Assembly (NCBI GenBank): GCA_015064185.1
Contig: SVSS01000005.1
Coordinates: 14,198-78,197, forward strand
Direction of reading: 5' to 3'
Source of the DNA: Oscillospiraceae bacterium
GTDB lineage: Bacteria; Bacillota; Clostridia; Oscillospirales; CAG-272
DNA: 64,000 bases
A model generated the notes under the pieces. That model did not search any database. It was not told where the DNA came from and was given only the letters and a program-made list of their open reading frames with translations. Positions 18,301-35,879 of the stretch are shown here, one piece after another (position 1 is the first letter of the stretch; each line of letters begins with the position of its first letter). A program made the position numbers and the translations under genes.

Positions 18301-18380
18301 ATATCAAAGCCTCCTTGCCGTATATTCCTATCCGTTACACTATACGTTGGAGGATTTCAAAATATGACTTTCGGCTCGAA

Positions 18381-18701
18381 TGCGAACCTAATTCTGCGTC
18401 GCTTCGCGGGCACTAGGGTATTCGCGCGTTGCGCGAAGATACCCACCGCTTGCCGCTTACGAGCGAGCTCGACGCGCTCTGCGCGGGGGTATGCGAACCT
18501 AATTCTGCGTCGCTTCGCTATGCACTAGGGTATTCACGCTTCGCGTGAAGATTTTTGCTCGCGGCTCTCGTGAGCGAGCTCCCATCGCCTTGCTCGCAAA
18601 ATGCGAACCTAGCTCCACAACGCTTCGCGTTGCGTAGCAACCTTTCGAAGCGTTAGTGCCCCAGCCAACGCAAAAAGGACACCCGAAGGTGTCCTTTGCG
18701 T
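18381..18701 (-). repeat. tRNA-Gln(CTG)-linked repeat array: inverted tRNA 3' end plus about 110-bp units containing split T-arm halves
   Basis: TAGTGCCCCAGCCA inverted copy at 18654-18667; TGCGAACCTA at 18381, 18492 and 18602; GCACTAGGGTATTC at 18410 and 18522. Confidence 0.8.
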
Positions 18702-18777
18702 TGGCTGGGGCACTAGGATTCGAACCTAGGGAATGACGGAGTCAGAGTCCGTTGCCTTACCGCTTGGCGATGCCCCA
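18702..18777 (-). tRNA. tRNA-Gln(CTG)
   Basis: TGGGGCATCGCCAAGCGGTAAGGCAACGGACTCTGACTCCGTCATTCCCTAGGTTCGAATCCTAGTGCCCCAGCCA. Promoter TTGACA-17-TATAAT at 18835-18807. Confidence 0.97.
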
Positions 18778-18974
18778 AAATATAGATGTCTTACAGAACA
18801 AACGTAATTATAACAGAATGGGTTTTGGTTGTCAAGAGCTTTTTACAAAAAAATCCAAAAAGTTGTGCTGCTTATCAGGTAGTGTGCGCTTTGGCGGTTG
18901 CTTTTATACACGCACAAAAGGCAGAATATGTGCATACGATAAAATAAACAAACAAAAAGGAGTGTGATGGTGAT

Positions 18975-19181
18975 ATGACACTTGCTGACATGCGCACGGG
19001 AGATATGGGTGTGATCCTTACCGCCCCTGTCACTCTAACTCGGGTTTTGCCTTGCTTGGGTGAGCGTGTGCGCCTGATCACGGCAAGCGAGGGGCTTGTG
19101 TTAATTGATCTTGGTGGGATGCGCGTTGCGCTTTCTCTTGCAGTGGCACGGCAGATGATACTTACAACATATTATGAATAG
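18975..19181 (+). CDS. FeoA-like small SH3-fold protein
   Basis: MTLADMRTGDMGVI...GERVRLI...LIDLGGMRVALSLAVARQM pattern. No feoB adjacent. Confidence 0.55.
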   Translation: MTLADMRTGDMGVILTAPVTLTRVLPCLGERVRLITASEGLVLIDLGGMRVALSLAVARQMILTTYYE

Positions 19182-19273
19182 TGGCGTTTTCGACAATATA
19201 ATTTAAAAAAAGTTCTTGAAAAGCCACATATGATATGCTATAATGAAACGCAGACATCACACATGTCGCCTTA

Positions 19274-19350
19274 CTACCCATGGCACAGCTGGATAGCGCG
19301 TCAGACTCCGACTCTGAAGGTCCGCGGTTCGAATCCGCGTGGGTAGGCCA
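19274..19350 (+). tRNA. tRNA-Arg(CCG)
   Basis: Acceptor stem CTACCCA/TGGGTAG-G-CCA; anticodon arm TCAGA-CTCCGAC-TCTGA; GGTTCGAATCC. Promoter TTGAAA-17-TATAAT at 19216-19244. Confidence 0.97.
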
Positions 19351-19798
19351 AACAAAAAAGACCCCTCGTGGGTCTTTTTTGTTTGGTCCCTGCATCGGAT
19401 TTGAACCCCACCGCCGCAGGAACAATGGAATTAACACAGTACATATTGCGGTGGGGAAGAACGCCGTTCGCTTGGTGATGGCGGCACATGGCCGCCAAGG
19501 CGCTTCTTCCTACAAAATGCGAAGCGTTTTGTGAACGAATAGGCGGCAATGCCGACGTCCGCGTGGGTAGGCCAAACAAAAAAGACCCCTCGTGGGTCTT
19601 TTTTGTTTGGTCCCTGCATCGGATTTGAACCCCACCGCCGCAGGAACAATGGAATTAACACAGCACATATTGCGGTGGGGAAGAACGCCGTTCGCTTGGT
19701 GATGGCGGCACATGGCCGCCAAGGCGCTTCTTCCTACAAAATGCGAAGCGTTTTGTGAAGGAATAGGCGGCAATGCCGACGTCCGCGTGGGTAGGCCA
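19334..19798 (+). mobile_element. Two tandem 224-bp structured units, each ending in a 17-bp copy of the tRNA-Arg 3' end
   Basis: TCCGCGTGGGTAGGCCA at 19334, 19558 and 19782. The units differ at only 2 positions that I can see. Confidence 0.85.
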
Positions 19799-19956
19799 AA
19801 AAACGGCAAGCATTGGTTTGCCGTTTTTTCGTTCTTGCCGTTCTCTCCTTTTACTATTGAAAATTGAGCAAGTTGTTATTTTAACTTGCAAAAAATGTTA
19901 TAATATGTTATACTATATAAGCTTATGGTATTTGAACAAAACGACGGGAGTCTATT

Positions 19957-21312
19957 ATGGAACAAAAGAGAAGCTCATTTACGGGAAAGATTGGATTTGT
20001 TTTGGCGGCGGCAGGTTCTGCTGTGGGTCTTGGCAATATCTGGCGTTTTCCGTATCTTGCTGCTAAGTATGGCGGCGGTATTTTTTTGCTTGTGTATATT
20101 TTACTGTCGGTCACCTTTGGCTTTTCCTTGATGATCGCAGAGATCGCGATCGGTCGCAAGACCAAATTAAGCCCCATTGGCGCATTTCGTGCGCTTGACA
20201 AGCGTTTTTCCTTTGTTGGCGTGCTTGCTGCCGTGGTGCCCGCTATTATTTTGCCTTACTACTCGGTCATTGGCGGTTGGGTGATGAAATATATCGTCGG
20301 CTTTGTCGGGGGGCAGGGGTCTGCTATGGCAAATGACGCGTATTTTGGCAATTATATCGGTTCTGTTACAGAGCCGCTTGTGTGGTTTGCGACATTTATC
20401 GGTATTACCGCTTTGGTGGTGCTGCTGGGTGTTGACAAGGGCGTTGAGAAGGTAAGTAAGATCATGATGCCCGCACTCATTGTATTGGTGCTCTTTATTG
20501 CGATCTACAGTATGATAGCGGTTGACGGTGCTTGGGAGGGTGTGCTGTATTACATCAAGCCCGATTTTTCTAAATTCTCTATCATGACCGTTGTTGCCGC
20601 CATGGGTCAGCTCTTTTACTCGATGTCGCTTGCTATGGGTATTATGATCACCTTTGGCTCTTACATGAAAAAGGATATCAGCATCGAAAAGTCGGTGCAT
20701 CAAATTGAAATTTTTGATACGGGTGTGGCTTTTCTTGCAGGTCTTATGATCATTCCCGCCGTATTTGCGTTTGGTGGGGAAGCGGCTCTTGGACAAAGCG
20801 GTCCTAGCCTGATGTTTGTGACGCTCCCCAAAATCTTTGATACGATGCCGGGCGGCGCTGTGATTGGTGCGATCTTCTTTATCATGGTCTTTTTCGCCGC
20901 ACTCACCTCATCGATCTCCTTGATGGAAACCGTGGTATCGACGCTGCTTGACAAGGTTAAGATCAACCGCAAGCTGTGCAGCGGCTTGGTGCTTGTTTTT
21001 TGCTTGATCATCGGTTCGCTCTCCTCACTTGGTTACAGTGCTTGGAGCGAGTTTACGCTGATCGGCATGCAGATCCTTGATTTCTTTGATTTTATCAGCA
21101 ACAGCATTATTATGCCGATCGTGGCACTTGCAACCGCTATCTTTGTGGGCTTTTTCCTTAAGCCCCGCGCCGTGATCGAGGAGGTAGAGATTTCGGGCGA
21201 ATTTAAGCAGAAGAAGCTGTTTTCGGTGATGATCCGTTATATAGCACCGATTTGCATTCTTGCCATTCTGGTTTCCTCTGTGCTGAGCGCATTTGGCGTG
21301 ATTAAAATTTAA
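19957..21312 (+). CDS. Sodium-dependent transporter (SNF/NSS family)
   Basis: AAAGSAVGLGNIWRFPY, GGGIFLLVY, GQLFYSMSLAMG, AALTSSISLME. Confidence 0.93.
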   Translation: MEQKRSSFTGKIGFVLAAAGSAVGLGNIWRFPYLAAKYGGGIFLLVYILLSVTFGFSLMIAEIAIGRKTKLSPIGAFRALDKRFSFVGVLAAVVPAIILPYYSVIGGWVMKYIVGFVGGQGSAMANDAYFGNYIGSVTEPLVWFATFIGITALVVLLGVDKGVEKVSKIMMPALIVLVLFIAIYSMIAVDGAWEGVLYYIKPDFSKFSIMTVVAAMGQLFYSMSLAMGIMITFGSYMKKDISIEKSVHQIEIFDTGVAFLAGLMIIPAVFAFGGEAALGQSGPSLMFVTLPKIFDTMPGGAVIGAIFFIMVFFAALTSSISLMETVVSTLLDKVKINRKLCSGLVLVFCLIIGSLSSLGYSAWSEFTLIGMQILDFFDFISNSIIMPIVALATAIFVGFFLKPRAVIEEVEISGEFKQKKLFSVMIRYIAPICILAILVSSVLSAFGVIKI

Positions 21313-21351
21313 TGTAAAAATAAAAAAAGCCCGAAAGGGCTTTTTTTATTT

Positions 21352-22254
21352 TTACGCTTCGACCGTACTTGCCACGGCTTCCTTTTCTGCAAGGCAGGCA
21401 GAGTCAACGGATACCTCGTATTTGGTAACGCCAAGCACCGTTTCACCGTCGATCTGTAAAGCCACGGGTCTGTCAAACTCGACACAGATGTGCTTACCCT
21501 GATGCTCAGCCGCAAGGCTCTTGTGCTTGATGTGTCCGCCCTTCGATACCGAGGGGAATACAAGCAGCGTGTGAATTCTGCCCGCATGGAACATGACACC
21601 AACCGATACGTGATCGGCGCGGTCGCGGCGGTGCTGGTGGGGGGTGGGCATCAGTCCGCCACCGTAGTATCTGCCTACCATGGTGGGCGCGATCCATACC
21701 TTTTTATACTCATAGGTCTTGCCGTCTACCGTCACTTTCGCGTTGGTGGGCTTGTATTTGCCAAGCAGACCCTTAATGGCAATGGCGGAGTAGCTGACGG
21801 GCTTTTCTGAGGTTTTGCGCAGTTCGTCGCCAATTTCACAGCAGTAGCCGTCAAGGCCGTATCCGATGCCGTTGATAAAGCGATAGCTATTGCCGTTTAC
21901 CGTCACAATGGGCAGATTTTTGATCTCCTCGTTGATGCGCATGGGCGCTGAGCCGGAGTCCTTGCCGAAATCGCGCAAGAAATCGTTTCCGCTACCCGTG
22001 GCATAGTAAAGGATATCATTTTCAATACCGAGATCGTAGATCTCGTTGATAAAGCGATTGAGTGTACCGTCGCCGCCACATACGATGATCTTATCTTCGG
22101 GTGCAAGGTCATTTGCAAAATTGTGGTAATCTGTAATTGTGGTCATATCCACATATGTAAGCGGAGAAGTGTATTGTGATTGCAATTCCTCAGCCTTTTG
22201 CTTACCGGTGTTGTGACCTGCATGAGGATTGTATAAAATGTAGATTTTACTCAT
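21352..22254 (-). CDS. Diacylglycerol kinase family lipid kinase
   Basis: NPHAG, GGDGTLNRFIN, TGSGNDF, QIDGE. Confidence 0.9.
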   Translation of the reverse strand: MSKIYILYNPHAGHNTGKQKAEELQSQYTSPLTYVDMTTITDYHNFANDLAPEDKIIVCGGDGTLNRFINEIYDLGIENDILYYATGSGNDFLRDFGKDSGSAPMRINEEIKNLPIVTVNGNSYRFINGIGYGLDGYCCEIGDELRKTSEKPVSYSAIAIKGLLGKYKPTNAKVTVDGKTYEYKKVWIAPTMVGRYYGGGLMPTPHQHRRDRADHVSVGVMFHAGRIHTLLVFPSVSKGGHIKHKSLAAEHQGKHICVEFDRPVALQIDGETVLGVTKYEVSVDSACLAEKEAVASTVEA

Positions 22255-22510
22255 AATGCGATCTCCTTTTTGCAATATTACATCATCATTTTATCATAAA
22301 GAGGCTAGGTTTTCAACAAAGTTTGACACTTTTTTGTTAGACAATTTTCGGAATTTGTTCATTTTTTGGTGGCTTGTACCGCACTTTTTTGACGTATAAT
22401 GCCACTTGTTGCTTTATAAGGTCGAAATTTAAAATCAGTTTTGTGGGGTTTACAAAATGACTGCGTTTTGGTATAATTATTAATAATATGACAATGTAAG
22501 GGGAAAAGAT

Positions 22511-23911
22511 ATGTTTGACAAGATCATTGCGGCCGTTAACGATGCGCTGTATGGGTACATTTTGATCATCATTCTTGTTGCGGGCGGGCTTTATTTTACC
22601 GTTCGCACCAAGGGAGCGCAGTTCCGCTTGCTAGGCGCACAGCTGCATGCCGTCACAGAAAAGCCCAAGGACGGAAAGGGTGTTTCCTCCTTTCAGGCGT
22701 TGATGGTTTCCACTGCATCGCGTGTGGGTACGGGCAATATCATTGGTGTATCCACCGCACTTTGTCTTGGCGGCTTTGGCGCTATGTTTTGGATGTGGGT
22801 GATCGCAGCCATTGGCGGTGCTACGGCACTCATTGAAAGCACGCTTGCGCAGATCTATAAAAGACGTGGCCCTGACGGTGCTTACGGCGGACCTGCCTAC
22901 TATATAGAAAAGGGAATCGGTTCAAAGCCGCTTGCCATACTTTTTTCTGTGGTGCTGATCATCACGTACGGTATCGGCTTTAATATGCTTGCCTCGTACA
23001 ATCTGCAATCCACGTTCTCGGCGTATTCGTTTTACAACGCGCAGCAAACGCCTTGGATCATCGGTGCGGTATTGGCAGTGCTGGTTGGCTATTGCTTGCT
23101 TGGCGGCGGAAAGCGTATGATGAAGGCAACCGGTATTTTAGTGCCGATCATGGGCATTGCGTATATTTTGATTGCAGTTGTGATCGTGTGTATCAATATC
23201 AAGAGTATCCCCACCGTGTTTGCAGAGATCTTCACAAACGCATTTGATTTCAAGGCGATCTTTGGCGGCTTTAGCGGCTCTTGCGTGATGTACGGCATCA
23301 AGCGCGGGCTTTACAGCAACGAGGCGGGTGTTGGCTCAGCTCCGAATGCCTCTGCCTCTGCCGATGTGCAGCACCCCATAAAGCAAGGGCTTGTGCAGGT
23401 GCTTTCGGTATTCATTGATACCATTCTCGTGTGCTCAGCCACGGGCTTTATGTGCATGACCTCGGGCGTTGAGGCAACTGCAGAGCTTTCCGGCGCGCCG
23501 TACGTGCAGGCTGCACTCTCTGCTTCGCTCGGTACCTTTGGACCGATCTTTATTACAGTGGCAATGGTACTCTTTGCCTTTACCACGTTGCTTGGAAATC
23601 TTTACTATGTTGATCAATGTGTGTTTTATATTCTTGGCAAGGTTCCCTCCAAGAAGGTGCAGCATGCATATCACATTGCGGCAGCCTTGATCGTATTGCT
23701 TGGCGCAGGTCTCTCGGCAGATCTTTTGTGGAACATCTCGGATCTTACCATGGGCGTGATGACGCTTATCAATCTGCCCGTCATTGTGATCCTTGGTAAA
23801 TATGCCTTCCGCGCACTCAAGGACTATGAGAAGCAGCGCAAGGCAGGAGAGGATCCCGTATTCCATGCAGCCGATATTGATCTGCCGCATGAGGTGGATT
23901 ATTGGCAGTAA
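22511..23911 (+). CDS. Alanine/glycine:cation symporter (AGCS family)
   Basis: SSFQAL, RVGTGNI, GGPAYYI, GIKRGLYSNEAGVGS. Confidence 0.93.
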   Translation: MFDKIIAAVNDALYGYILIIILVAGGLYFTVRTKGAQFRLLGAQLHAVTEKPKDGKGVSSFQALMVSTASRVGTGNIIGVSTALCLGGFGAMFWMWVIAAIGGATALIESTLAQIYKRRGPDGAYGGPAYYIEKGIGSKPLAILFSVVLIITYGIGFNMLASYNLQSTFSAYSFYNAQQTPWIIGAVLAVLVGYCLLGGGKRMMKATGILVPIMGIAYILIAVVIVCINIKSIPTVFAEIFTNAFDFKAIFGGFSGSCVMYGIKRGLYSNEAGVGSAPNASASADVQHPIKQGLVQVLSVFIDTILVCSATGFMCMTSGVEATAELSGAPYVQAALSASLGTFGPIFITVAMVLFAFTTLLGNLYYVDQCVFYILGKVPSKKVQHAYHIAAALIVLLGAGLSADLLWNISDLTMGVMTLINLPVIVILGKYAFRALKDYEKQRKAGEDPVFHAADIDLPHEVDYWQ

Positions 23912-23968
23912 GTATTTATAAAAAAGGGAAGGCAAACGAAGTTCATTTGCCTTCCTTTTTGAGTTGAA

Positions 23969-24169
23969 GAGAGAGTGGGACGGCACGATGTGCCTATTCG
24001 TTTGGCAAATCCCTGTGGATTTGCCAGGAAAGAGCGCTCGTCGCCTGAACGGCTCCGTTTCCTTTGGAAAACCGCGCTCGTACCTCCCCACGCCGCGCAG
24101 GCGCGGCGCGAGTTTTTACCCACTCTCTCCGCCAAGCAAAAAAGCCCCCATTTCGGGGGCTTTTTTGCT
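23969..24169 (-). mobile_element. tRNA-Ser-linked structured unit (206-bp period)
   Basis: Inverted copy CCCACTCTCTCCGCCA at 24119-24134. Direct copy GAGAGAGTGGGA at 23969-23980 matches tRNA 24175-24186. Body homologous to the Arg unit. Confidence 0.8.
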
Positions 24170-24258
24170 TGGCGGAGAGAGTGGGATTCGAACCCACGGT
24201 CCCTTGCGGGATCACTAGTTTTCAAGACTAGCTCCTTAAACCGCTCGGACATCTCTCC
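24170..24258 (-). tRNA. tRNA-Ser(TGA)
   Basis: GGAGAGATGTCCGAGCGG...CTAGT-CTTGAAA-ACTAG, long variable arm, GGTTCGAATCCCACTCTCTCCGCCA. Confidence 0.97.
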
Positions 24259-24465
24259 ATATTCTGTTAACGCGTAACTAAAAGCAAGGTCAACCCTTTA
24301 AATATGCCTTCCAGCGCGACAACAAGGGTATTGTATCATATTTGGTAGCAGTTGTCAAGGTTTTGGCGGTGGTTTTTATCAGAATTGTAAAATGTGAATG
24401 CTTGGGAAAAATCCCCCCCGATTACACATTGTGCAATCGGGGGGATTTTATTGTTACACGTAGTA

Positions 24466-27400
24466 TTATGTGTTCTGCGAATAAAGCTCGCCCAAACGAA
24501 GCAGGTGCTCATAGCGTGCCTGCGCGGTTTCCTCAGCCTTGCTGAACAGTGTCTCTGCGCGCTCGGGGAAGGAGCGCGTGAGGGACGCATAGCGTGCCTC
24601 GTTCATGATGAAGTCACGGTAGCTAGCGGCAGGTGCCTTGCTGTCCATGGTGAAGGGATTCTTGCCCTCTGCCTTGGCGGCGGGGTTGAAGCGGAACAGG
24701 TTCCAATAGCCGCATTCCACAGCCTTCTTCATTTCAAGCTGGCAGTTCATCATGCCGCCCTTGATAGAGTGCATCTCGCAGGGAGAATAGCCAATGATGA
24801 GGGAGGGACCCGGGTATGCCTCTGCCTCAGCGATCGCCTTGATCGTCTGATTCATATCAGCACCCATAGCAATCTGTGCTACGTAGATATAGCCGTAGCT
24901 CATAGCGATCTCTGCCAGGCTCTTCTTGGCAATTGCCTTACCTGCAGCGGCAAACTGTGCTACCTGACCGATATTGGATGCCTTAGAAGCCTGACCGCCG
25001 GTGTTGGAGTATACTTCGGTGTCAAATACCATTACATTCACATCCTCACCGGATGCCAGCACGTGGTCAAGACCGCCAAAGCCAATATCGTAAGCCCAGC
25101 CGTCGCCGCCAAAGATCCATACCGACTTCTTGGAAAGGAATTCGCGGTTTGCAAGCACATCCTTGCATGCATCACAGTCGCAGTTCAGCGCCTCCAGCTC
25201 AGCCACCAAGGTCTTTACTGCGGCGGTGTTTGCCTCACCGTCATTTACGGTGTTCAGGTAAGCCTCACAAGCAGCCTTAACGGTGTCGGTGGATTTCTCG
25301 CAGTTAAGAATTTCCTTAACGTCCTCGATCAAGCGAGCGCGTACTGCCTTTTGACCCATATACATGCCAAAGCCGTGCTCTGCGTTGTCCTCAAACAGGG
25401 AGTTCGCCCATGCGGGGCCGTGCCCCTTGCTGTTTGTGGTGTAGGGAGAGGTTGCGGCAGGACCGCCCCAAATAGAGGAGCAACCGGTCGCATTGGAAAT
25501 ATACATGCGATCGCCAAACAGCTGGGTAATGAGGCGTGCATACGATGTTTCTGCACATCCTGCACAAGAGCCGGAGAACTCGAGCAGCGGCTTTTTGAAC
25601 TGGCTGCTGATCACAGTTTTGCCAACCGTTTCGGGCTTTTCGCTTACCTTGGCAACGCAGTAATCAAACGCCTCCTGCTGTGCAGCCTGGCTTTCCTGCG
25701 GTACCATCTTCAGGGACTTAGTGGGGCACACGCCAACACATACGCCACAGCCCATGCAGTCCAGGGGAGAAATGGCAAGCGTGAAGGTATAGTTGGTCTT
25801 AACAATAGGCTTGGGATGCTTTTTGAGTGCCTCGGGTGCTGCTGCCAGCTCCTCCTCGTTCATGGCGAAGGGACGGATGGTGGCGTGCGGGCAGACGAAG
25901 GAGCACTTGTTACATTTCGCACACGTGTCAGCATTCCATTCGGGAACCATGACGGCAACACCGCGCTTTTCGTAAGCCGATGCGCCCTGCTCAAAGGTGC
26001 CGTCTGCGTGGTCGATGAAGGCAGAAACAGGCAGGCTGTCACCGTCCATCTTTCCAACGGGCTTCATGATGCCCTCTACCATCTTTACCAGCTTTGCGGC
26101 GCCCTCGCCCTTAGAAGCCTGAACGGCATCCGTGGCATCAGCCCAATGGGCGGGCACATCGATCTTTACAAACGCGGTAGCGCCTGCGTCGATCGCCTTG
26201 TGGTTCATTTCCACAATGTCCATACCCTTCTTGGCGTAGGACTTGGTAGCGGCATCCTTCATGTACTGAATGGCATCCTCTTGGGGCATGACCTTTGCCA
26301 GCGTAAAGAATGCGGATTGCAAAATGGTATTGGTACGCTTGCCCATGCCAATTTGCATAGCCAGATCAATGGCGTTAATGGTATAAACTTGAATGTTGTT
26401 ATTTGCGATATAGCGCTTTGCCTCAGCGGGCATGTGCTTGTCAAGCTCCTCGGCAGTCCATTGGCAGTTGATCATAAAGATACCACCGGGCTTTACGTCG
26501 TTGACCATTTTGTAGCCCTTCAGTACGTAAGAGGGGTTGTGGCAAGCAACGAAATCAGCCTTGTTGATGTAATAAGGGCTCTTGATGGGCTTGTCGCCAA
26601 AACGAAGATGGCTGATGGTGATACCGCCGGTCTTCTTCGAGTCGTACTGGAAGTATGCTTGTACGTATTTATCGGTATGGTCGCCGATGATCTTGATGGA
26701 GTTCTTGTTTGCGCCAACGGTACCGTCGCCGCCAAGACCCCAGAACTTGCACTCGATTGTACCCTCTGCTGCGGTGTTGGGCGCTACCGTTTCAGGCAGT
26801 GACAGGCAGGTCACGTCGTCTACGATGCCGATGGTAAAGCGGTGCTTGGGCGCATCCTTTGCCAGCTCGTCAAATACAGCAAACACGCTGGAGGGAGGGG
26901 TATCCTTAGAGCCAAGACCGTAACGGCCGCCGATCACGCGGATATCGCCGCGTCCCTGCGTTGCAAGGGCGGTGACCACATCCATATAAAGAGGCTCGCC
27001 GAGAGCGCCGGGCTCCTTGGTGCGGTCAAGCACAGCAAGCTTTTTAACGGTGGCAGGGATCGCTGCAGCCAATTTGTCTGCGCAGAAGGGACGGTACAGG
27101 CGGCATTTTACAAGGCCGACCTTTTCGCCCTTTGCGGTGAGGTAGTCAATGACCTCCTCTGCTACGTCACAAATAGAGCCCATAGCAACGATCACGCGCT
27201 CTGCGTCGGGCGCGCCGTAGTAGTTGAAGATCTGATAATCGGTACCAAGCTTTTCGTTGACCTTTTGCATATAGCCTTCCACGATAGCGGGAACAGCATC
27301 GTAATATGTATTGCATGCCTCACGGTGCTGGAAGAAGATATCGCCGTTCTCGTGCGAGCCGCGCATCACAGGGCGCTCGGGGTTAAGCGCGCGCTTACGG

Positions 27401-28008: not shown

Positions 28009-28306
28009 GGATATCTCCTCCTTTAAAAGGTTGAAAAATATTGATTTTGTGCAAATGGAATATAGATATCATAGTCCAAATGCACTACATAATTATAATA
28101 ACACAAATATATAGCTTTGTAAAGTGGGAACAATGTATTTTACTGATTTTACAGATAAAAATACGTAAAATTACAAAATGACTATAAAATGAGAAAAAAT
28201 TACAAATAACTCTTGCTTTTTTAAAAAAGTTGTGATACAATAGTAAGGCTATGTATGTTTGCGCCCTGTTTGGCGCTTGATTTTGAATATTTTCGGAGGT
28301 TTGAAA

Positions 28307-28561
28307 ATGAATCCTATTGAACTCGTTCTGGGTATTGTGTTGATGGTTCTTGCACTGTTTTTGATCGTTGCTGTTTTGATGCAACAGGACAAGGACAAAA
28401 AGCTTTCCGGTACGATTACCGGTGGCGCTGATACTTACTACGGTAAGGGCAAGGGCAAAAGCAGAGATAAGATTCTTGTGCGTGCTACAACGGTAGCAGC
28501 TATTCTCTTTGCTATTTTGGTAGTTGCAATGTACGTGATCGTTTCTATGATCAGCGGCTAA
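28307..28561 (+). CDS. secG: Preprotein translocase subunit SecG
   Basis: 84 aa; two TMs flanking LMQQ...LSGTITGGADTYYGKGK. Confidence 0.9.
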   Translation: MNPIELVLGIVLMVLALFLIVAVLMQQDKDKKLSGTITGGADTYYGKGKGKSRDKILVRATTVAAILFAILVVAMYVIVSMISG

Positions 28562-28667
28562 AATCAATATAAGCGGCGGCGGGGTGACCTGCCGCCGCTT
28601 ATATTTTGTAAAAAATCTGCATGATTAAAAAAACTCGCAAGCAGCGCTTGCGAGTTTTTTTGTGCAT

Positions 28668-30086
28668 TTATGATTTGCTTGACAGATACTCGTCAATTGC
28701 TGTGGCAGCGGTCTTGCCTGCGCCCATGGCGAGAATAACGGTGGCAGCGCCCGTTACGGCATCACCGCCCGCATATACGCCCTCAAGGCTGGTCTTGCCC
28801 GTTGCCTCGTTAACTACAATACCGCCCCAACGGTTGATCTCAAGTCCGCTTGTGGTATCCTTAATGAGAGGGTTGGGGGAGGTGCCGATCGACATGACAA
28901 CGGTATCTACGTCAAGCAGGTACTCGCTGCCGGGGATCTCTACAGGACGGCGGCGTCCTTTTTCGTCGGGCTCGCCAAGCTCCATTTTGATGCAGCGCAT
29001 GCCTGTAACAAATCCGTTTTTCGGATCGCGTCTGTCCGCCTCGTTGCGGTAGCCAACGATCTCAACGGGATTGTTCAGCAGCAGGAATTCAATGCCTTCC
29101 TCCATGGCGTGCTCAACCTCCTCGCGGCGTGCGGGGAGCTCCTCCATGGAACGGCGGTATACGATGTAGACCTTTTCTGCGCCAAGACGCAGTGCGGTGC
29201 GCGCGGCATCCATTGCAACGTTACCGCCGCCGACAACGGCAACCTTGCCGCCCTTCATTACGGGTGTTTCGCCGTCATCCATGTAAGCCTTCATCAGATT
29301 TACACGAGTCAGATATTCGTTTGCGGAATACACACCCTTCAGATTTTCGCCGGGGATGTTCATAAAGCGGGGAAGTCCCGCGCCCGAGCCGATAAAGACG
29401 GCCTCGTAGCCTTCTTCCATCAGCTCCTCGACCGATACGGTCTTGCCGATCACCACGTTGGTGGCGATCTCAACGCCAAGCGCCTTTAAGCCCTCGATCT
29501 CGTTGGCAACGATCGCCTTGGGCAAACGGAATTCGGGAATGCCGTAAACCAAAACGCCGCCCGCGATGTGGAACGCCTCAAAAATCGTAACGGCGTAGCC
29601 TTTTTTAGCAAGGTCGCCTGCACAGGTAAGGCCGGAGGGACCGGAGCCTACCACCGCTACGCGATGGCCGTTCTGGGTAGGCTTTACGATCTCCTTATCC
29701 TTTTTGGCATTATGATAGTCCGCAACAAAGCGTTCCACACGGCCAATGCCGACAGGCTCGCCCTTAATGCCGCGCACGCACTTGCCCTCACACTGATTTT
29801 CCTGCGGGCATACGCGTCCGCAAACTGCGGGCAGGGAGCTTTGGAGCGAAATGGTTTCATAAGCGCCCTCAAAATCTCCCGTTGCAGCCTTGGTAAGAAA
29901 AGCGGGAATGTTGATCGAAACGGGGCAACCCGTTACGCAAAGCGGCTTTTTGCAGTTAAGGCATCTTGCAGCCTCATCCATTGCTTGCTCGGCAGTATAG
30001 CCAAGCGCCACCTCTTCAAAATTGTGCGCACGAACCTTAGGGTCCTGCGTGGGCATCTCATTTTTCTTTAACGACATGTTTGGCAT
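28668..30086 (-). CDS. nfnB: NfnB / GltD-like NADP-dependent flavoprotein subunit of electron-bifurcating transhydrogenase
   Basis: RCLNCKKPLCVTGCP, CGRVCPQENQCE, GSGPSGL, GGGNVAMD. Paired with an nfnA-like gene; no gltB in the window. Confidence 0.85.
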   Translation of the reverse strand: MPNMSLKKNEMPTQDPKVRAHNFEEVALGYTAEQAMDEAARCLNCKKPLCVTGCPVSINIPAFLTKAATGDFEGAYETISLQSSLPAVCGRVCPQENQCEGKCVRGIKGEPVGIGRVERFVADYHNAKKDKEIVKPTQNGHRVAVVGSGPSGLTCAGDLAKKGYAVTIFEAFHIAGGVLVYGIPEFRLPKAIVANEIEGLKALGVEIATNVVIGKTVSVEELMEEGYEAVFIGSGAGLPRFMNIPGENLKGVYSANEYLTRVNLMKAYMDDGETPVMKGGKVAVVGGGNVAMDAARTALRLGAEKVYIVYRRSMEELPARREEVEHAMEEGIEFLLLNNPVEIVGYRNEADRRDPKNGFVTGMRCIKMELGEPDEKGRRRPVEIPGSEYLLDVDTVVMSIGTSPNPLIKDTTSGLEINRWGGIVVNEATGKTSLEGVYAGGDAVTGAATVILAMGAGKTAATAIDEYLSSKS

Positions 30087-30929
30087 TTATTTGTCCTCCC
30101 CCCGGAAAAGATTGCAGGCATCCTCATGACGGTGACGCTCGAATGCGTGATACATCGATGAACGCTCGATTGCCTCGTCAAAGTCGATCTCATGCGCGTC
30201 AAATTCGGGACCGTCAACACAAGCAAACTTGGTTTTGCCGCCTACGCTGAGGCGGCAGCCGCCGCACATGCCCGTGCCGTCGATCATGACGGGGTTCATG
30301 CTGGCAACGGTCTTAATACCGTATTGCTTGGTAAGAAGGCTGACAAACTTCATCATAACAAGAGGGCCGATCGTGATGACCTCATCGTATTGCTCACCGC
30401 TGTCGATCAGTTTTTTGAGGGCATCGGTTACAAGACCCTTTTCGCCTGTCGAACCGTCATCGCTCATCAGCACAAAGCGCGAGCTGTTCTCGCGGAACTC
30501 ATCCTCAAGAATAACAAGATCCTTTGTTCTGAAGCCAACAATAGCGTGTACCTCGGCGCCTGCCTCGTGCAGAGCCTTGGCAACGGGGTATGCAATGGCA
30601 GAGCCAACGCCACCGCCAACAACAGCAACCTTTTTCAGTCCCTCGATCTCGGTGGCACGGCCAAGCGGGCCCACAAAGTCGGCGATGTAACCGCCTTCTT
30701 CTACGTGGTTCAGCTTTTCGGTAGTGCCGCCAACGACCTGAAAGATAATGCTTACGGTGCCGGTTTCTTTATTGCTGTCAGCAATAGTAAGAGGAATACG
30801 CTCTCCTTTTTCATCGACGCGCAGGATGATGAATTGCCCGGGCCTTGCCTTTTTGGCAACAAGGGGCGCCTCGATCTCAAGCAGCGTAACAGTGGGATTG
30901 AGTGACTTTCTCTTTACGATACGATACAT
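30087..30929 (-). CDS. nfnA: NfnA / sulfide-dehydrogenase beta-like FAD/2Fe-2S subunit
   Basis: GERIPLTIAD, GPLG, DGTGMCGGCR, CVDGPEF. Confidence 0.88.
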   Translation of the reverse strand: MYRIVKRKSLNPTVTLLEIEAPLVAKKARPGQFIILRVDEKGERIPLTIADSNKETGTVSIIFQVVGGTTEKLNHVEEGGYIADFVGPLGRATEIEGLKKVAVVGGGVGSAIAYPVAKALHEAGAEVHAIVGFRTKDLVILEDEFRENSSRFVLMSDDGSTGEKGLVTDALKKLIDSGEQYDEVITIGPLVMMKFVSLLTKQYGIKTVASMNPVMIDGTGMCGGCRLSVGGKTKFACVDGPEFDAHEIDFDEAIERSSMYHAFERHRHEDACNLFRGEDK

Positions 30930-31003
30930 AACGCTCTCCTTTTCACAACAGAGAATTTTTGTGTATGCCGAAACTTATACGAGAAAAAATTATGCTTTAA
31001 AAA

Positions 31004-32371
31004 TTAGCAAACACCGAATGCAAGCATTGCGCGTGCAACCTTAAGGAAGCCTGCGATATTTGCACCTGCTACAAGGTCATCGCCAAGGTCGTACTCGTGT
31101 GCGGCATCAATGGAAGCCTTGAAGATGTTGTGCATGATCATGTGGAGCTTCTCATCAACCTCTTCAGCAGTCCAGCTGTAGCGCATGGAGTTCTGGGACA
31201 TTTCAAGACCGGAAACAGAAACACCGCCCGCATTTACTGCCTTGGAGGGAGCAACGATAACGCCGTTTGCCTTGAGGTAAGCAATTGCCTCGTTGGTGGT
31301 GGGCATGTTGGCAACCTCAACGTAGTACTTCAGGCCGTTTGCAACCATCTTCTCAGCCTCAGCCATGCCAACCTCGTTCTGGGTAGCACAGGGCATCATG
31401 ATGTCTGCCTTAACGCCCCAGGGCTTTTCTTTGGGGAAGAACGCTACGCCAAACTTGTCTGCGTAATCCTCAACGCGGTTGCGGCAGGAAGCGCGCATCT
31501 CAAGCATAAAGTCGATCTTTTCGTCGGTGGATACACCGTCGGGATCGTAAATGTAGCCGTCGGGACCGGAGATGGTGAGAACCTTACCGCCAAGCTCGTT
31601 GATCTTCTTGACAGCGCCCCAAGCAACGTTGCCGAAGCCCGAGATAGCAAAGGTCTTGCCCTTGATATCGTCGCCGAAGTAGTTGAGCATATCTACTGCG
31701 TAGTAAACCGCACCGAAGCCGGTTGCTTCAGGACGCAGGATAGAGCCGCCGTAGGGCATGCCCTTGCCGGTAAGCACGCCGGTGAACTCGTCACGCAGAC
31801 GCTTGTACTGACCGAAGAGGTAGCCGATCTCACGTGCACCAACGCCGATGTCGCCTGCGGGCACGTCGGTGTTTGCGCCGATGTATTTTTGAAGCTCAGT
31901 CATAAAGCTCTGGCAGAAGCGCATAACCTCTGCGTCGGACTTGCCCTGCGGGTCAAAGTCAGAGCCGCCCTTACCGCCGCCCATGGGCAGGGAGGTGAGG
32001 GAATTCTTAAAGGTCTGCTCGAAGCCAAGGAACTTCATGATGCTCTCGTTTACAGTTGGGTGGAAGCGCAGACCGCCCTTGTAGGGACCGATCGCACTGT
32101 TGAACTGTACGCGGTAGCCGCGGTTTACGCGGGTAACGCCCTGATCGTCAACCCACGGAACACGGAATTTGATCACACGCTCGGGCTCTACGATAAGGTC
32201 GATGATGCCTTTTTCGATAAATTCTGGGCTCTTTGCCAAAACGGGCTCAAGAGACTCCAGCACTTCGCTTACAGTCTGGTGGAATTCAACCTCACCGGGG
32301 TTGCGCTTCTTTACCTGCTCTACAACGCCTTCGATGTAGGCCTTTACTTCGGCACGGGTCATGTTTGCCAT
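31004..32371 (-). CDS. gdhA: NAD(P)-specific glutamate dehydrogenase
   Basis: GPYKGGLRFHP, GGGKGGSDF, DVPAGDIGVG, RPEATG, NAGGVSVSGLEM. Confidence 0.96.
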   Translation of the reverse strand: MANMTRAEVKAYIEGVVEQVKKRNPGEVEFHQTVSEVLESLEPVLAKSPEFIEKGIIDLIVEPERVIKFRVPWVDDQGVTRVNRGYRVQFNSAIGPYKGGLRFHPTVNESIMKFLGFEQTFKNSLTSLPMGGGKGGSDFDPQGKSDAEVMRFCQSFMTELQKYIGANTDVPAGDIGVGAREIGYLFGQYKRLRDEFTGVLTGKGMPYGGSILRPEATGFGAVYYAVDMLNYFGDDIKGKTFAISGFGNVAWGAVKKINELGGKVLTISGPDGYIYDPDGVSTDEKIDFMLEMRASCRNRVEDYADKFGVAFFPKEKPWGVKADIMMPCATQNEVGMAEAEKMVANGLKYYVEVANMPTTNEAIAYLKANGVIVAPSKAVNAGGVSVSGLEMSQNSMRYSWTAEEVDEKLHMIMHNIFKASIDAAHEYDLGDDLVAGANIAGFLKVARAMLAFGVC

Positions 32372-32617
32372 TGATTTTTTCCTCCAAAATTAAGAAAATA
32401 TGAAATTTCTTGTCGAAAACAAGATATCATTGCTATTTTATCATAGATAAAATTACTTTGTCAAGTGGTAGACGCAAGATGAAGGGAGAAAACTTGCAAA
32501 ATATGCTATGCGGCACAGGGCACAATCTTGCTTTTTTGCCGCAATTTAAATAGAGCGTTATAATACGGTCGCGCGGCACATAGGATATAGCGGTAAAAAA
32601 GCATGGAGGGTGCGATA

Positions 32618-33931
32618 ATGAAATTTTTAAATTTGAGCAAAAAAAGAAGAGTGTTGGCGTTTTCGCTTTGCGGTGTGCTTTGCGCAGGCGCATTGGTCGG
32701 TGCATGGGCACTGTGGGGGAAACGGGAGCCCGAAAGCCTTGTGGTAAGTGCGGGACTGCAGCATTTTGCGGATGATGCGTATCTTGCAGCCTCTGCGGTA
32801 TCGGGGCAGCCCGTAACCTTTACGGCCGAGTGGTTTGACGGCACGCTTGGTGGCGGCACGGTGGAGCGCGTGACGATCACGACGCTCCCCCCTGTTACCG
32901 AGGGGGTGCTTAAGCTTGGCTACGGTGAGGTGTCGGTAGGGCAGAGCATTCCGCGCGAAACGCTGTCTTATTTGTGCTTTACCCCCAATGACGGGGTGAA
33001 AAGCAGCAGCTTTTCCTTTGTGCCGGAGAGTGTGGACGGTGCCGCGGGCTATGCGCTAACCTGCCATATGACGGTAACCGATACCGTGAATTGCTGTCCC
33101 GGCGGCACGAAAAGCGCCACGGCGGTTTCCACGCACGAAACGCTCGCGCTTTCGGGTGTGCTGACGGCAAAGGACCCCGAGGGGGATGCCTTGACCTTTG
33201 AAATTTGTGATTACCCCAAAAACGGTACAATTACACTCGATAGTGCCACAGGCGCGTTTACCTATACACCGCAGGACGGTTATTACGGTAGCGATGCGTT
33301 TACCTGGCGCGTGCAGGATCAAAACGGTGCGTTTGCACCCGAGGCGGTGGTAAACATTACGGTGCGTGAGCTTGTAACGGATCACACCTTTACCGATATG
33401 CAAGGCAACGCCAATCACACGCACGCTTTGCGTGTGAGTGAAAAAGGGCTGCTTGGCGGAGAGGAGATCGGCGGAAAGCATTATTTTCATCCGCATAAAG
33501 CACTTACCCGTGCTGCGTTTGTGACGATACTGCTTGATGCCGCTGAAATAAAAGTACCCGAAGCCACCGCCACGGGATATGCAGATGATGCGGATATCCC
33601 CGCACCCATGAAGGGTGCGATCAAATATGCAAAAGACCAAGGTTGGCTTGGCGAAGCGGAGAATTTCCGCCCAAACGATGCCATTACCCGCGCTGAGGCT
33701 GCCGAGATCGCGGCAAAGGTTTTGTCGCTCTCAGCACCCGGATACCATGAAACGGTACAGGATTTTGATGCCATTCCCGTTGATATGGCGGATGCGTTGT
33801 ACGCCATTTATGAGGGCGGATATATCAGCACCATGGCAGACGGAACACTCTCACCTATGGGAGAACTGACGCGGGGCGATGCTGCAAAATTCTTTGCTAA
33901 GATCCTTGACGGCAAAAATACGGATGAATGA
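32618..33931 (+). CDS. Membrane-anchored protein with cadherin/Ig-like (Big_9) domain and C-terminal SLH domains
   Basis: DPEGDALTF..PKNGTI..GAFTYTPQDGYYGSDAFT; SLH motifs FHPHKALTRAAF, FRPNDAITRAEAA, ELTRGDAA. Confidence 0.85.
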   Translation: MKFLNLSKKRRVLAFSLCGVLCAGALVGAWALWGKREPESLVVSAGLQHFADDAYLAASAVSGQPVTFTAEWFDGTLGGGTVERVTITTLPPVTEGVLKLGYGEVSVGQSIPRETLSYLCFTPNDGVKSSSFSFVPESVDGAAGYALTCHMTVTDTVNCCPGGTKSATAVSTHETLALSGVLTAKDPEGDALTFEICDYPKNGTITLDSATGAFTYTPQDGYYGSDAFTWRVQDQNGAFAPEAVVNITVRELVTDHTFTDMQGNANHTHALRVSEKGLLGGEEIGGKHYFHPHKALTRAAFVTILLDAAEIKVPEATATGYADDADIPAPMKGAIKYAKDQGWLGEAENFRPNDAITRAEAAEIAAKVLSLSAPGYHETVQDFDAIPVDMADALYAIYEGGYISTMADGTLSPMGELTRGDAAKFFAKILDGKNTDE

Positions 33932-34076
33932 TCACAAAAGGAGCCGATGCGGAAGCAAAGGCTCCTTTTCTTTGACATAAAAGATCAAAATACAAATATT
34001 CTAAAATATCTATTGCTTTTTTGGTGTGTTTGCGCTATAATCAAAGGCAGTTGTTTTTTAAGGAGTATTTAGACAG

Positions 34077-34796
34077 ATGAGAGAAACAATTGATATGACA
34101 AGAAAAGAACTGGCGGTTTTCTTCCTTATGGCGGTGCTGTCGGGCTTTATGATCGGCATTGGCGGCACGGCATCGTTACTTGCAAACAGTCTGCTTGGCA
34201 ATTGGGGGCGTCTGATCGGCGCGATCCTTTTTTCGCTTGGTATTTATGCTATCGTAACCTATGGCATGAAGCTGTTTACGGGTATGGTAGCAGATATTCC
34301 CAAAATGGGTATGAAGAGCATGTGGCGCTTGCCTCTTTGCTTTTTCGGCAATATCATCGGCGTGGCGATCGTTGCGGTGCTGGTGTATAACTCTCCCCTT
34401 GCCACGCCCGTGGTGGCAAAGGGCAGTGCAACCGTTGCGGCAAAGCTGGCGCAGGAGAGCTGGGCATTAAAATCCTTTTGCTCCGCAATCCTTTGCGGCT
34501 GGCTCATTACCCTTTCTGTTTGGGCATCGAAATATGCACCCAAGAAGAATTTAAGCGCTTCTATTGAGGTCATTTTCCCTGTGGTCGTGTTCGCGTTTTG
34601 CGGCTTTGATCACTCGGTTGCCAATATGCTGTATTTCTATTTCTTAGGTGAGGTTTCCTGGCGCGTTGTTGGGTATATCGTGATGAGTGTGCTTGGCAAC
34701 ATCGTGGGCGGTGTGCTGCTGCCGCTTGTCATCCTTCTTAAGGAAAGAGCAAAAGTGGAGCGCCTTGCTATGGCAGAAAAGGATAACGTAGCGTAA
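34077..34796 (+). CDS. Formate/nitrite transporter family protein
   Basis: LFTG, GNIIG, ILCGWL, GFDHSVANM, GNIVGG. Confidence 0.9.
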   Translation: MRETIDMTRKELAVFFLMAVLSGFMIGIGGTASLLANSLLGNWGRLIGAILFSLGIYAIVTYGMKLFTGMVADIPKMGMKSMWRLPLCFFGNIIGVAIVAVLVYNSPLATPVVAKGSATVAAKLAQESWALKSFCSAILCGWLITLSVWASKYAPKKNLSASIEVIFPVVVFAFCGFDHSVANMLYFYFLGEVSWRVVGYIVMSVLGNIVGGVLLPLVILLKERAKVERLAMAEKDNVA

Positions 34797-34870
34797 ACAG
34801 TAGCATAAAGAGAAGCCCCCCGTGCGGCATTTGCCGCACGGGGGGCTTTGTCTTTGCAAGAATGCACTTC

Positions 34871-35410
34871 TTAGCCTTTGTTATGCATCCAATAATTGTA
34901 CTTTTTCTTGCGGTAGATCAAGAGAAAAATAATGTACACAAGGCAATCACTCACGGCACTTAACAGGTAACCCACAAAAGGGATCTTGATGAAATTAGCG
35001 AACAAGCACATCGGAGCAAAGAAGAAGGCGGGAAACGAAACAATGGTTTTCTTTTCAAACACCAAACGATCAAATGTGTTCAGTACAAAACAGATCAAAA
35101 CGATCGCAGCAACACAAATAAGCGCCTTAGCTTCACGTTTTATTATCAGCTTGAGATCATCTACAAGTGAAGTGTATTTTTTGTCCTTATAATCGGACAT
35201 CACCTCATCTTCACCAACGGATTTTCTGATTTTTGATGTGTACAGTAGGAAAAAACCAAAAGCAACTGTTGTCATGAATGCAATCAAAAACAATTTTAAT
35301 GTGGGATTTTCAAGTTCGCTTAAAATTGCTCCCCATATGGCATATAGCGCTATGTATGCTACTAATGTAATGACCGATGCAAGCGTGATATTCCATAACG
35401 TTCGTTTCAT
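34871..35410 (-). CDS. Hypothetical membrane protein (AT-rich gene)
   Basis: 179-aa ORF with 4-5 TM segments and RBS GGAGG. Confidence 0.7.
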   Translation of the reverse strand: MKRTLWNITLASVITLVAYIALYAIWGAILSELENPTLKLFLIAFMTTVAFGFFLLYTSKIRKSVGEDEVMSDYKDKKYTSLVDDLKLIIKREAKALICVAAIVLICFVLNTFDRLVFEKKTIVSFPAFFFAPMCLFANFIKIPFVGYLLSAVSDCLVYIIFLLIYRKKKYNYWMHNKG

Positions 35411-35503
35411 AAAAGCCTCCCCAAGTTTACTTAGTATTATTATACCATAAATTAGGTAACTGTAAAGGAGATTTGATTGAACTGTTGGTTGAATGAATTG
35501 TCT

Positions 35504-35718
35504 TGGCAGGATTCGCCCCGCTTTCTGCGGCGTTGCCGCAGACGCTTAAAGAATGCCTTGATGCCTAAACGGCATCATTTCGCAGGGCGAAAATCGGCAT
35601 TCTTTCCCGCCGCACCATAGCTTGTTTGATTTTTGCAACATGCGTGGCGGCGGAGATTCGGATCCGCGCCATCCCAGCCGACAATCAAAAAAGCCACCCG
35701 AATGGGTGGCTTGATTGT
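35504..35718 (-). mobile_element. tRNA-Gln(TTG)-linked structured unit (224-bp period)
   Basis: Inverted copy TTCGGATCCGCGCCATCCCAGCC at 35657-35679. Direct copy TGGCAGGATTCG at 35504-35515 equals tRNA 35728-35739. Body homologous to the Arg unit. Confidence 0.8.
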
Positions 35719-35793
35719 TGGCTGGGATGGCAGGATTCGAACCTACGAATACCAGAGTCAAAGTCTGGTGCCTTACCGCTTGGCGACATCCCA
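35719..35793 (-). tRNA. tRNA-Gln(TTG)
   Basis: TGGGATGTCGCCAAGCGGTAAGGCACCAGACTTTGACTCTGGTATTCGTAGGTTCGAATCCTGCCATCCCAGCCA. Confidence 0.97.
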
Positions 35794-35879
35794 TTGTTTT
35801 GAATACGCCATACATTATACCATTTGCAGATAAGGCTGTCAAGAGCAAATTTACAGAATTTGGAGTAATTTTTGGGGTT

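Follow-up and report, generated by a model that had tools for sequence, protein, structure and literature searches.

Modules built from inverted and direct copies of tRNA 3' ends in a Clostridial genus, and their likeness to the TLR repeats of Escherichia coli

Introduction

Repeats that end in a copy of the gene lying upstream of them have long been known in Escherichia coli, and they are the closest known parallel to the modules reported here, which follow the tRNA genes in a 64,000-nt stretch of DNA from an Oscillospiraceae bacterium (GCA_015064185.1, contig SVSS01000005.1, positions 14,198 to 78,197 of the forward strand; the whole of this analysed stretch is called the window below). [quoted passage not shown] They were first described by Egan and Landy in 1978 and listed by Rudd in 1999 (as cited in PMC8144298); according to the portions of that paper available to us, they have neither a known function nor an accepted origin, and a direct copy is the only copy mentioned there. 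The rrA, rrB and rrF TLRs sit between dual terminators, are transcribed by read-through, are processed, and bind Hfq and CsrA in vitro (PMC8144298). For the tyrT-rttR region, raised coverage in exonuclease-resistant DNA under stress has been described, with no mechanism given in the portions available (10.1101/2024.07.17.603846). In our literature searches such repeats were not described for Clostridia, and a description of TLRs as a family was met in PMC8144298 alone.

Then, do such repeats occur in a phylum distant from E. coli? The modules in question are composed of a terminator, an inverted copy (IC) of the 3' end of the adjacent tRNA, a hairpin-rich body and a direct copy (DC) of the same tRNA end. 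The family is real, statistically strong and genus-wide, and within one genus its modules are shown to be gained, lost, tandemly amplified and exchanged piecewise at tRNA 3' ends. We give about an even chance to the reading that they are the Clostridial counterpart of the E. coli TLRs, that is, non-coding DNA repeats that turn over by recombination or template switching.

Self-matching at tRNA ends across the genome

The assembly to which the window belongs (G000; 1.53 Mb, 16 contigs, 41 tRNAs, 95% complete) contains 28 terminal tRNAs that are followed by 150 nt or more of sequence, and each of them was scored by an own-tRNA rank test, in which the region from +20 to +110 was compared with the reverse complements, and the region from +100 to +400 with the forward sequences, of all 41 tRNA 3' ends. 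The tRNA's own end ranks first for the IC at 17 of the 28 and for the DC at 20; if a score of at least 10 is also demanded, the numbers are 16 for the IC, 20 for the DC and 14 for both together. Neither copy is present at five tRNAs (Arg-CCT, Ser-CGA, Thr-CGT and two Met). The identical test on a congener, G003 (98% complete), gives 0/20 for the IC and 3/20 for the DC; therefore, the self-matches are not an artefact of the method. Together with alignments of the bodies, the rank test bears out the earlier observation that the parts matching the tRNA differ from one tRNA to another, with body modules recurring among them.

The recurring order on the tRNA strand is the CCA of the tRNA, a first terminator hairpin (T1), the IC of acceptor 3' strand and T-arm, beginning with TGG, a stem (P0), a second stem (P1), a hairpin (P4), a T-loop-like piece with the DC, and often a second terminator (T2) or the next unit. 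The loops of T1 are often of the CCAATCGG or CTYGTG type, which is absent from the non-tRNA terminators in our list of palindromes, and P1 opens with GRAAG and holds a variable insert. Modules are 110-260 bp in size, lie on the same strand as the tRNA and encode no protein. They form arrays of 1-3 units, sometimes with different body types at one tRNA; Arg-CCG carries 2.1 units, Gln-CTG about 3, and Lys, Val-CAC, Gly-CCC, Leu-CAG, His and Leu-CAA 2 each. The exact DCs are 10-20 nt long and extend exactly to the CCA at Arg-CCG (17 nt), Leu-CAG (18), His (17) and Leu-CAA (20); many others are short or truncated within the acceptor strand, often without the acceptor end and CCA. Internal units of arrays often miss the left palindrome arm, i.e., the acceptor end, CCA and A-tract. 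A module is also present at the end of an rRNA operon, after 5S-tRNA-Asn. Four body types (classes A to D, class D having a split T-arm) were distinguished, classes B, C and D being sorted by eye and the class A core alone being described by a covariance model.

The modules of the window

Exactly four tRNAs are found in the window by ARAGORN, and their features are as follows.

18702-18777, minus strand: tRNA-Gln(CTG), CCA encoded (ARAGORN; Rfam tRNA 58.1 bits)
18668-18701, minus strand: terminator-like hairpin T1, straight after the CCA of tRNA-Gln(CTG) (read in the sequence)
18654-18667, minus strand: IC of the tRNA-Gln(CTG) 3' end, 14 nt exact, from TGG, TGGCTGGGGCACTA on the tRNA strand (own-tRNA rank 1/41, score 16.5)
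18381-18653, minus strand: split-T-arm repeats of Gln(CTG), about 3 x 110 bp (sequence; class assigned by eye)
18408-18417, minus strand: DC of the tRNA-Gln(CTG) end, 10 nt (sequence match)
19274-19350, plus strand: tRNA-Arg(CCG) (ARAGORN)
19351-19574, plus strand: Arg(CCG) unit 1, with T1 at 19351-19384, class A three-way junction at 19452-19513 and DC at 19558-19574 (sequence, tandem-repeat detection, covariance model R1 51.3 bits)
19575-19798, plus strand: Arg(CCG) unit 2, with three-way junction at 19676-19737 and DC at 19782-19798 (tandem copy, 99% identity)
24170-24258, minus strand: tRNA-Ser(TGA) (ARAGORN)
24119-24185, no strand: perfect palindrome of Ser(TGA), 31-nt arms (palindrome scan; RNA fold z = -10.6)
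23981-24118, minus strand: hairpin-rich body of Ser(TGA), with a diverged class A junction at 24024-24087 (R1 55.4 bits)
23969-23980, minus strand: DC of Ser(TGA), 12 nt (TCCCACTCTCTC), beginning past the T-loop (sequence match)
35719-35793, minus strand: tRNA-Gln(TTG) (ARAGORN)
35653-35718, minus strand: T1 hairpin (35680-35718) and IC (35653-35679) of Gln(TTG) (IC rank 1, score 17.5; DNA fold z = -11.5)
35516-35652, minus strand: body of Gln(TTG), with stem P0, class A junction (35544-35609) and hairpin P4 (best R1 match, 79.1 bits)
35504-35515, minus strand: DC of Gln(TTG), 12 nt (CGAATCCTGCCA), beginning inside the T-loop, where homology with the relative G182 resumes (sequence match)

Reading of the sequence together with the ARAGORN tRNA calls confirms that inverted and direct copies lie downstream of the window tRNAs, as the preliminary description had reported. 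The DCs are 10-17 nt long, lie 190-290 nt downstream and start in or beside the T-loop. That all four tRNAs carry an inverted copy stands for Gln(CTG), Ser(TGA) and Gln(TTG), while at Arg(CCG) there is a degenerate inverted T-arm/acceptor at about 19384-19413, with an own-tRNA rank of 11/41. Likewise, the shared body that had been proposed for the four is class A at Arg(CCG), at Gln(TTG) and, more distantly, at Ser(TGA), but a split-T-arm body at Gln(CTG).

At Ser(TGA), the palindrome is made up of the tRNA 3' end (24170-24185), a terminator composed of A-tract, GC stem, loop and T-tract (24135-24169) and an IC of 16 nt exact (24119-24134). Past the DC lies a second terminator (23925-23958), in common with a convergent gene. 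The IC of Gln(TTG) complements acceptor and T-arm with mismatches, 12 nt being exact. Both stretches fold far better than shuffled sequences, as the z-scores in the list indicate. The tandem at Arg(CCG) has a period of 224 bp, 2.1 copies and 99% matches; its two DCs are 17 nt each and reach the CCA, and a second terminator follows unit 2 at about 19799-19830. Each split-T-arm repeat of Gln(CTG) has the T-stem 5' strand plus TTCG, then a hairpin body, then AATACCCTAGTGC.

A few loci elsewhere in the assembly depart from the usual arrangement. At C14:138395-140700 (L034, L069), two modules end in DCs of the tRNA-Met 3' end, 1.7-2.1 kb downstream of tRNA-Met; the insert between tRNA and modules encodes a protein that by eye resembles a four-helix bundle (23S IVS-type), and the sequence after the tRNA is homologous to that after the last DC. 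No tmRNA gene was found in the assembly by ARAGORN or above the Rfam cut-off, and, at 95% completeness, it may be unassembled.

The class A junction and its distribution

The class A core forms a three-way junction, aligned over 17 copies and 66 columns, in which compensatory double changes are found in 12 of the 19 predicted pairs and several junction nucleotides are invariant; the covariation looked for across loci is thus present for this core. On the tRNA strand there are 9 G-U pairs and 5 A-C or C-A pairs. Three window elements contain it, namely Arg-CCG (twice), Gln-TTG and Ser-TGA (diverged), and at tRNA-Gly(CCC) the junction is inverted.

With the covariance model R1 (65-nt core), 39 other species of the genus were searched and 33 of them have class A, the number per genome ranging from 0 to 49; under stricter filters, it was found in 6 of 150 other sampled genomes of the order. 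It is absent from G003 and five other species of the genus. Within the genus it lies downstream of a same-strand tRNA at 20 of 29 loci, and 38 matches in public metagenome-assembled genomes divide into 27 linked to a tRNA, 10 at contig edges and 1 unlinked, i.e., 27 of the 28 that can be evaluated. The carriers are metagenome-assembled genomes of uncultured Clostridia, Oscillospiraceae or Eubacteriales from the guts of ruminants and other animals. The structured bodies are common to at least 10 different tRNAs. Among the nearest neighbours of 51 class A cores, 39 of them labelled by tRNA, 20 are the same tRNA in another genome, 1 is another tRNA in the same genome and 18 are other cases; because the core is only 60 nt long, vertical descent and transfer are not separable in this way. 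In JGI metagenome contigs, the class A pattern was met in 3 short contigs, with the match at the contig end.

Some occurrences lie apart from tRNAs. At L097 (G024:C74), two genes are separated by a class A-like three-way junction, which a stem of its own closes, and no tRNA lies within 1.5 kb. In the window's assembly, C11:26663-26800 and C11:86062-86199 hold two copies of a palindrome with 18-nt arms (aaggggctgtctcaaatt…), each followed by a weak R1 match (33.6 bits) and far from tRNAs.

Gain, loss and exchange among relatives

Empty and filled alleles occur within the genus. Most tRNAs of G003 are followed by plain terminators, and past its tRNA-Val(GAC) there is a single terminator with the downstream gene starting about 60 nt later, whereas the same tRNA in G000, G008 and G182 is followed by T1, IC, body, DC and T2. 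Numbers of units vary as well. Between G000 and G008 (flanks about 85% identical) they are 2 and 1 at Lys, 1 and about 1.5 at Ser-GGA, and 2 and 1 at Val-CAC, where the body also differs. Between G000 and the closer G182 (flanks 86-98% identical) they are 2 and 1 at Gly-GCC, and about 2 and a partial unit at Gly-CCC; the Tyr locus has 230 nt extra in G000. The empty alleles and copy-number variation that had been looked for are thus found, and with the rank test on G003, the varying bodies and the range of class A copies per species they agree with a family gained and lost as DNA.

Exchange takes place by pieces. At Gln-TTG, G000 has a class A body and G182 a split-T-arm one, and T1 differs too, while the idiosyncratic IC (GGCTGGGATGGCGCGGAT), the DC and the flank past it are conserved between the two. 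At the tRNA-Met on C7, T1 and P1 are replaced between the same genomes and IC, P4, DC and flank are kept. Consequently, the pieces are exchanged independently and not as one cassette. The tRNA-Ser(TGA) orthologues of four congeners carry a module of the same layout, with hairpins diverged but compensated, and two of the congeners share derived changes in the DC; the Ser(TGA) module is therefore old and inherited.

Past tRNA-Val(GAC) of G008 (C74, L126), a hairpin-rich insert of about 150 nt lies inside a small hairpin that is intact in G000, which suggests that small palindromic insertions of other kinds also occur in the genus.

Comparison with the E. coli TLRs

In the E. coli comparison, which covers two loci (tyrT-tyrV and rrnB), the tyrT-tyrV-rttR region contains three exact 19-nt DCs with a period of 178 bp. 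Each tyrT TLR unit also has an inverted T-arm copy, matching at 19 of 22 nt, a score reached by 0 of 500 shuffles. This copy reads GAGAAG where the true complement would be TCGAAC, which is the same change from TCGAA to GAGAA as in 12 of 30 Clostridial cases, and after the inverted copy comes a T-arm split by a hairpin insert, like the class D units. The preliminary description, which itself named the tyrT repeats, had taken the inverted-plus-direct layout to be undescribed as a family; since the E. coli TLRs share this defining layout, the Clostridial family is not categorically new. The rrnB TLR has a DC but no IC of the 5S end. Its rrB body (L234, about 330-370) contains an inverted T-arm-like piece (GCGGATTTGAAC) that resembles the degenerate IC after tRNA-Arg(CCG) of the window.

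The likeness extends to the placement directly past the last tRNA or rRNA gene, on the same strand and in 1-5 tandem units, to the way in which each unit closes with a direct copy, beginning in the T-loop, of the 3' end of the gene upstream, and to the dual-terminator layout. However, the two also differ in several respects. Rfam rtT (RF00391), the TLR family, has no match with E up to 1 in positions 18000-36200 of the window, nor with E up to 0.1 in 20 further module-bearing loci (21,620 nt), and in the same sequences no Rfam family other than tRNA is above threshold. The Clostridial IC abuts a perfect palindromic terminator, often with the complement of CCA, whereas the tyrT IC lies 59 nt after the CCA, with no hairpin. 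The Clostridial DC is 10-20 nt and often truncated, the E. coli one a constant 18-19 nt. Several body types, including the three-way junction, occur in the Clostridial family, and about half to two thirds of the tRNA operon ends are occupied, compared with 10 loci in E. coli. By their layout, the Clostridial modules are a new, much richer and more structured variant of the TLR kind in a distant phylum.

What the inverted copy follows

The tRNA end, T1 and the IC fold as one hairpin of 31-40 bp, and the longest palindromes of the assembly are linked to tRNAs (arms of 33, 31 and 28 nt). The stems stay perfect while the sequences of paralogous T1 and T2 diverge fast. The IC pairs with the T-arm save at two central T-loop positions, where GAGAA stands against TCGAA; among the Clostridial loci, the 5-mer preceding the exact complement of the T-stem 5' strand is GAGAA at 12 of 30 and the true complement at about 3 of 30. 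At positions where the DC differs from the tRNA, the IC follows the adjacent tRNA end at 41, its own DC at 2 and neither at 7, a count biased by the many differing positions that lie at DC edges. With 41 against 2, the stem that is maintained is that of tRNA end, terminator and IC, and not one of IC and DC. On the same edge-biased count, neither the pairing of the two copies into a duplex matching the target, as first envisaged, nor selection on an IC-DC closing stem is supported.

A possible mechanism

If the modules are indeed the counterpart of TLRs, they would arise and turn over by DNA recombination or template switching, as their anatomy suggests, through short homologies in the tRNA end, the palindromic T-arm and the palindromic terminator. 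Intrastrand template switching would keep and extend the palindromes until the tRNA end forms their outer arm. The IC, being the outermost portion of a single long palindrome that folds into a hairpin, would in this way stay complementary to the tRNA end, which is under selection. The DC and T2 would arise by duplication or insertion with a junction in the palindromic T-loop, and ectopic conversion among the many copies would shuffle the hairpin modules, which fits the mosaic exchanges. Read-through transcription between the two terminators is likely, by analogy with E. coli rrA, rrB and rrF. No element-encoded enzyme is involved.

Several points weigh against this account. There is no detectable homology to rtT; the comparison with E. 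coli rests on one tRNA locus and one rRNA locus, the latter without an IC; the count by which the IC follows the tRNA is edge-biased; recombination and template switching are deduced from anatomy only; and neither an excision or circle junction nor an event between strains was caught in the metagenome runs and contig probes described below. In addition, it leaves unexplained why the modules keep so strictly to one strand orientation, why nucleotides of the three-way junction are invariant and why GAGAA is conserved, and these three features keep an RNA function and a recombination site for a host enzyme under consideration.

An inverted-copy signature in two distant phyla suggests, from the sequences compared, that what happens at tRNA 3' ends is general and not peculiar to E. 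coli. For the E. coli repeats, the genus offers a richer natural data set, with dozens of units per genome, several body types, a covarying junction, species from near-empty to nearly saturated, and module swaps. G003 and G006 exemplify low occupancy, and G010, G002 and G177 high occupancy. The GAGAA positions, the palindrome and the DC start are concrete features that could be mutated in E. coli. On the practical side, assemblies are interrupted at tRNA loci by the modules, which software that looks for genomic islands could mistake for attachment (att) sites.

Alternative explanations

Could the modules primarily be functional non-coding RNAs, transcribed by read-through from T1 to T2, with turnover of the DNA being secondary? 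The IC and DC would then form an acceptor/T-arm minihelix that recruits tRNA-processing enzymes, and the junction would bind a protein or ligand. Same-strand placement past tRNAs in 27 of 28 evaluable matches, the covariation and invariant nucleotides of class A, and the excess of G-U over A-C or C-A pairs (9 compared with 5) are in line with this idea, as is the dual-terminator layout, which is that of T1-rrB-T2 in E. coli rrnB, whose read-through RNA is processed and binds Hfq and CsrA in vitro (PMC8144298). However, the IC comes only after T1, whose hairpin is strong and perfect and has a U-tract; G003 does nearly without the copies and, like five other species, wholly without class A; bodies are swapped for unrelated hairpins in close relatives; the junction is inverted at tRNA-Gly(CCC); and the DC often has no acceptor end or CCA, while the IC does not covary with its own DC. 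None of the sequencing runs found to contain the region is an RNA run. An RNA function as the primary one is, in our opinion, rather unlikely.

The modules had initially been proposed to be a non-autonomous mobile family, whose single strand folds so that IC and DC form a duplex mimicking the tRNA target, on which a recombinase acting in trans (Xer-like or other) would work at the T-loop. The hairpin of tRNA end, T1 and IC, with its z-scores of -10.6 and -11.5, the two unpaired central T-loop positions, which are like an unpaired overlap region, the DC start in the T-loop, and the empty and filled alleles with different bodies in the same tRNA slot all speak for such a site. So does the finding that the two tyrosine recombinases of G000, its only ones, are both Xer-like by NCBIfam (under the equivalog cut-offs) and are each encoded within 2 kb of module-carrying tRNA genes. 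The likeness to integron attC and CTX attP sites lies in the long imperfect hairpin presenting a duplex with central mismatches and in structure conserved over sequence. However, the integron-integrase models of NCBIfam reach 76.9 and 62.9 bits against a cut-off of 265, far too low for an IntI in G000, and the number of tyrosine recombinases does not track that of class A copies (4 and 49 in G010, 7 and 0 in G003). Furthermore, a one-piece cassette is at odds with the separate exchange of T1, IC and body between G000 and G182, and excision at the many DCs truncated in the acceptor strand would destroy the tRNA.

Excised circles, which junction reads could reveal, were not seen either. The 20 sequence matches among sequencing runs are all Logan contigs of animal gut or faeces DNA metagenomes. 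Four metagenome runs were examined over positions 17800-36300 of the window, where the organism has about 5-10x depth and contigs end inside modules (e.g., at 18397, 24149 and 35563); no usable excision, empty-site or circle junction was present in them, the joints being short-sided (20-42 nt) and belonging to the tRNAs or repeats of other organisms. A 24-nt probe for the tandem or circle junction of the Ser element gave 0 matches in JGI metagenome contigs. On balance, we consider a folded recombination site of this sort improbable.

A cassette-array context exists only loosely, at C15:5100-7700 (L032) of the window's assembly, outside the window, where three class A modules alternate with two small open reading frames of membrane-like proteins (263 and 152 aa) in a cassette-like manner. 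Two of these modules follow an identical 25-nt sequence with GCCA at its end, which ARAGORN does not class as a tRNA, and one ends in a DC of the tRNA-Leu(AAG) end, although tRNA-Leu(AAG) sits on another contig.

As to other enzymes, the earlier statement that the window encodes no recombinase holds for the five Pfam families searched. Four serine recombinases of G000 cluster at C11:3-11 kb. An IS110 bridge-RNA element and a tRNA-primed retroelement were tried as candidates and rejected, there being no match to the IS110 transposase (PF01548) or to reverse transcriptase (PF00078) in the assembly. A weak Y1 HUH match turned out to be a RAYT-like gene (C10:12269-12814, 182 aa, about 1.4 kb before the window start, L007), whose product scores 64.3 bits with REP_Tyr_transpos against a cut-off of 80; it is present in a single copy between der and a radical-SAM gene. 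REP, BIME and REPIN-RAYT systems resemble the modules in being mosaic hairpin-rich extragenic repeats near terminators. The modules, unlike these, are tied to tRNA ends and match them, and they do not flank the RAYT-like gene. Of 150 other genomes of the order, 30 have a RAYT-like gene, none of them among the 6 that carry the class A core, and the RAYT-like gene was therefore rejected as a mobiliser.

A broader proposal is that the TLRs and the Clostridial modules are both products of one conserved, host-driven and structure-guided process at tRNA T-loops, in which the hairpin of tRNA end, terminator and IC with its GAGAA mismatches would be a self-matching site where an enzyme acting in trans inserts, copies or exchanges hairpin cassettes. 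We hold this to be quite doubtful. If true, the modules would be non-autonomous elements of a new class, each copying its own target, and repeats left unexplained since 1978 would be explained.

Integrases prefer particular parts of tRNA genes, and the modules might be scars, the leftovers of integrase-borne islands or prophages at T-loops deleted down to their att ends (mini CIMEs). Direct repeats of the tRNA 3' end from the T-loop, together with a displaced T2, are the expected residue of serial integration, and island att sites and CIMEs share with the modules the crossover in the T-loop, the tandem accretion and the displaced original terminator. The genus also has integrases right beside tRNAs, at 5 of the 12 integrase loci examined. 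However, what follows the tRNA at these five junctions is a plain terminator; there is neither an IC nor a class A core, nor a DC within the 2.4-5 kb available, so that the modules are not simply the ends of the ordinary islands of the genus. Nor were larger versions with an integrase, HUH nuclease or reverse transcriptase found, either by Pfam on G000 or as a module-like att at the 12 loci. Modules of 110-260 bp without integrase, but with an inverted copy and covarying structure, are also unlike islands; the bodies are common to at least 10 different tRNAs, more than a single integrase specificity can account for, and the class A pattern gave 0 matches in IMG/VR. Such an origin is very unlikely. 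Beside this subject, at L093 (G187:C24, about 1500-1900, minus strand) the end of a gene that, by eye, resembles the C-terminal part of a large serine recombinase abuts half of a module terminator hairpin (…AATCGGGAGGGC…), which gives the impression of an island inserted in the conserved loop of the terminator.

Finally, that there is no family at all, but chance or mutational extensions of terminators and local tandem duplications of no common origin, is scarcely credible, for although long perfect palindromic terminators are general in G000 (61 long palindromes, mostly A/T-tract terminators at non-tRNA sites with arms of 18-25 nt, about 42 of them not linked to tRNAs and a few extending 6-10 nt past the A/T tract), it is contradicted by the own-tRNA rank tests with G003 as negative control, by homologous T1 loops and bodies at many tRNAs in many species, by class A homology and genus-wide spread, and by a GAGAA signature common also to E. 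coli.

Other repeats in the window

Two tandem arrays lie apart from the tRNA genes, and both are probably coding. One, at 16136-16458, is an 18-bp tandem repeat with 17.9 copies, and the other, at 51424-51693, is a 42/84-bp tandem array.

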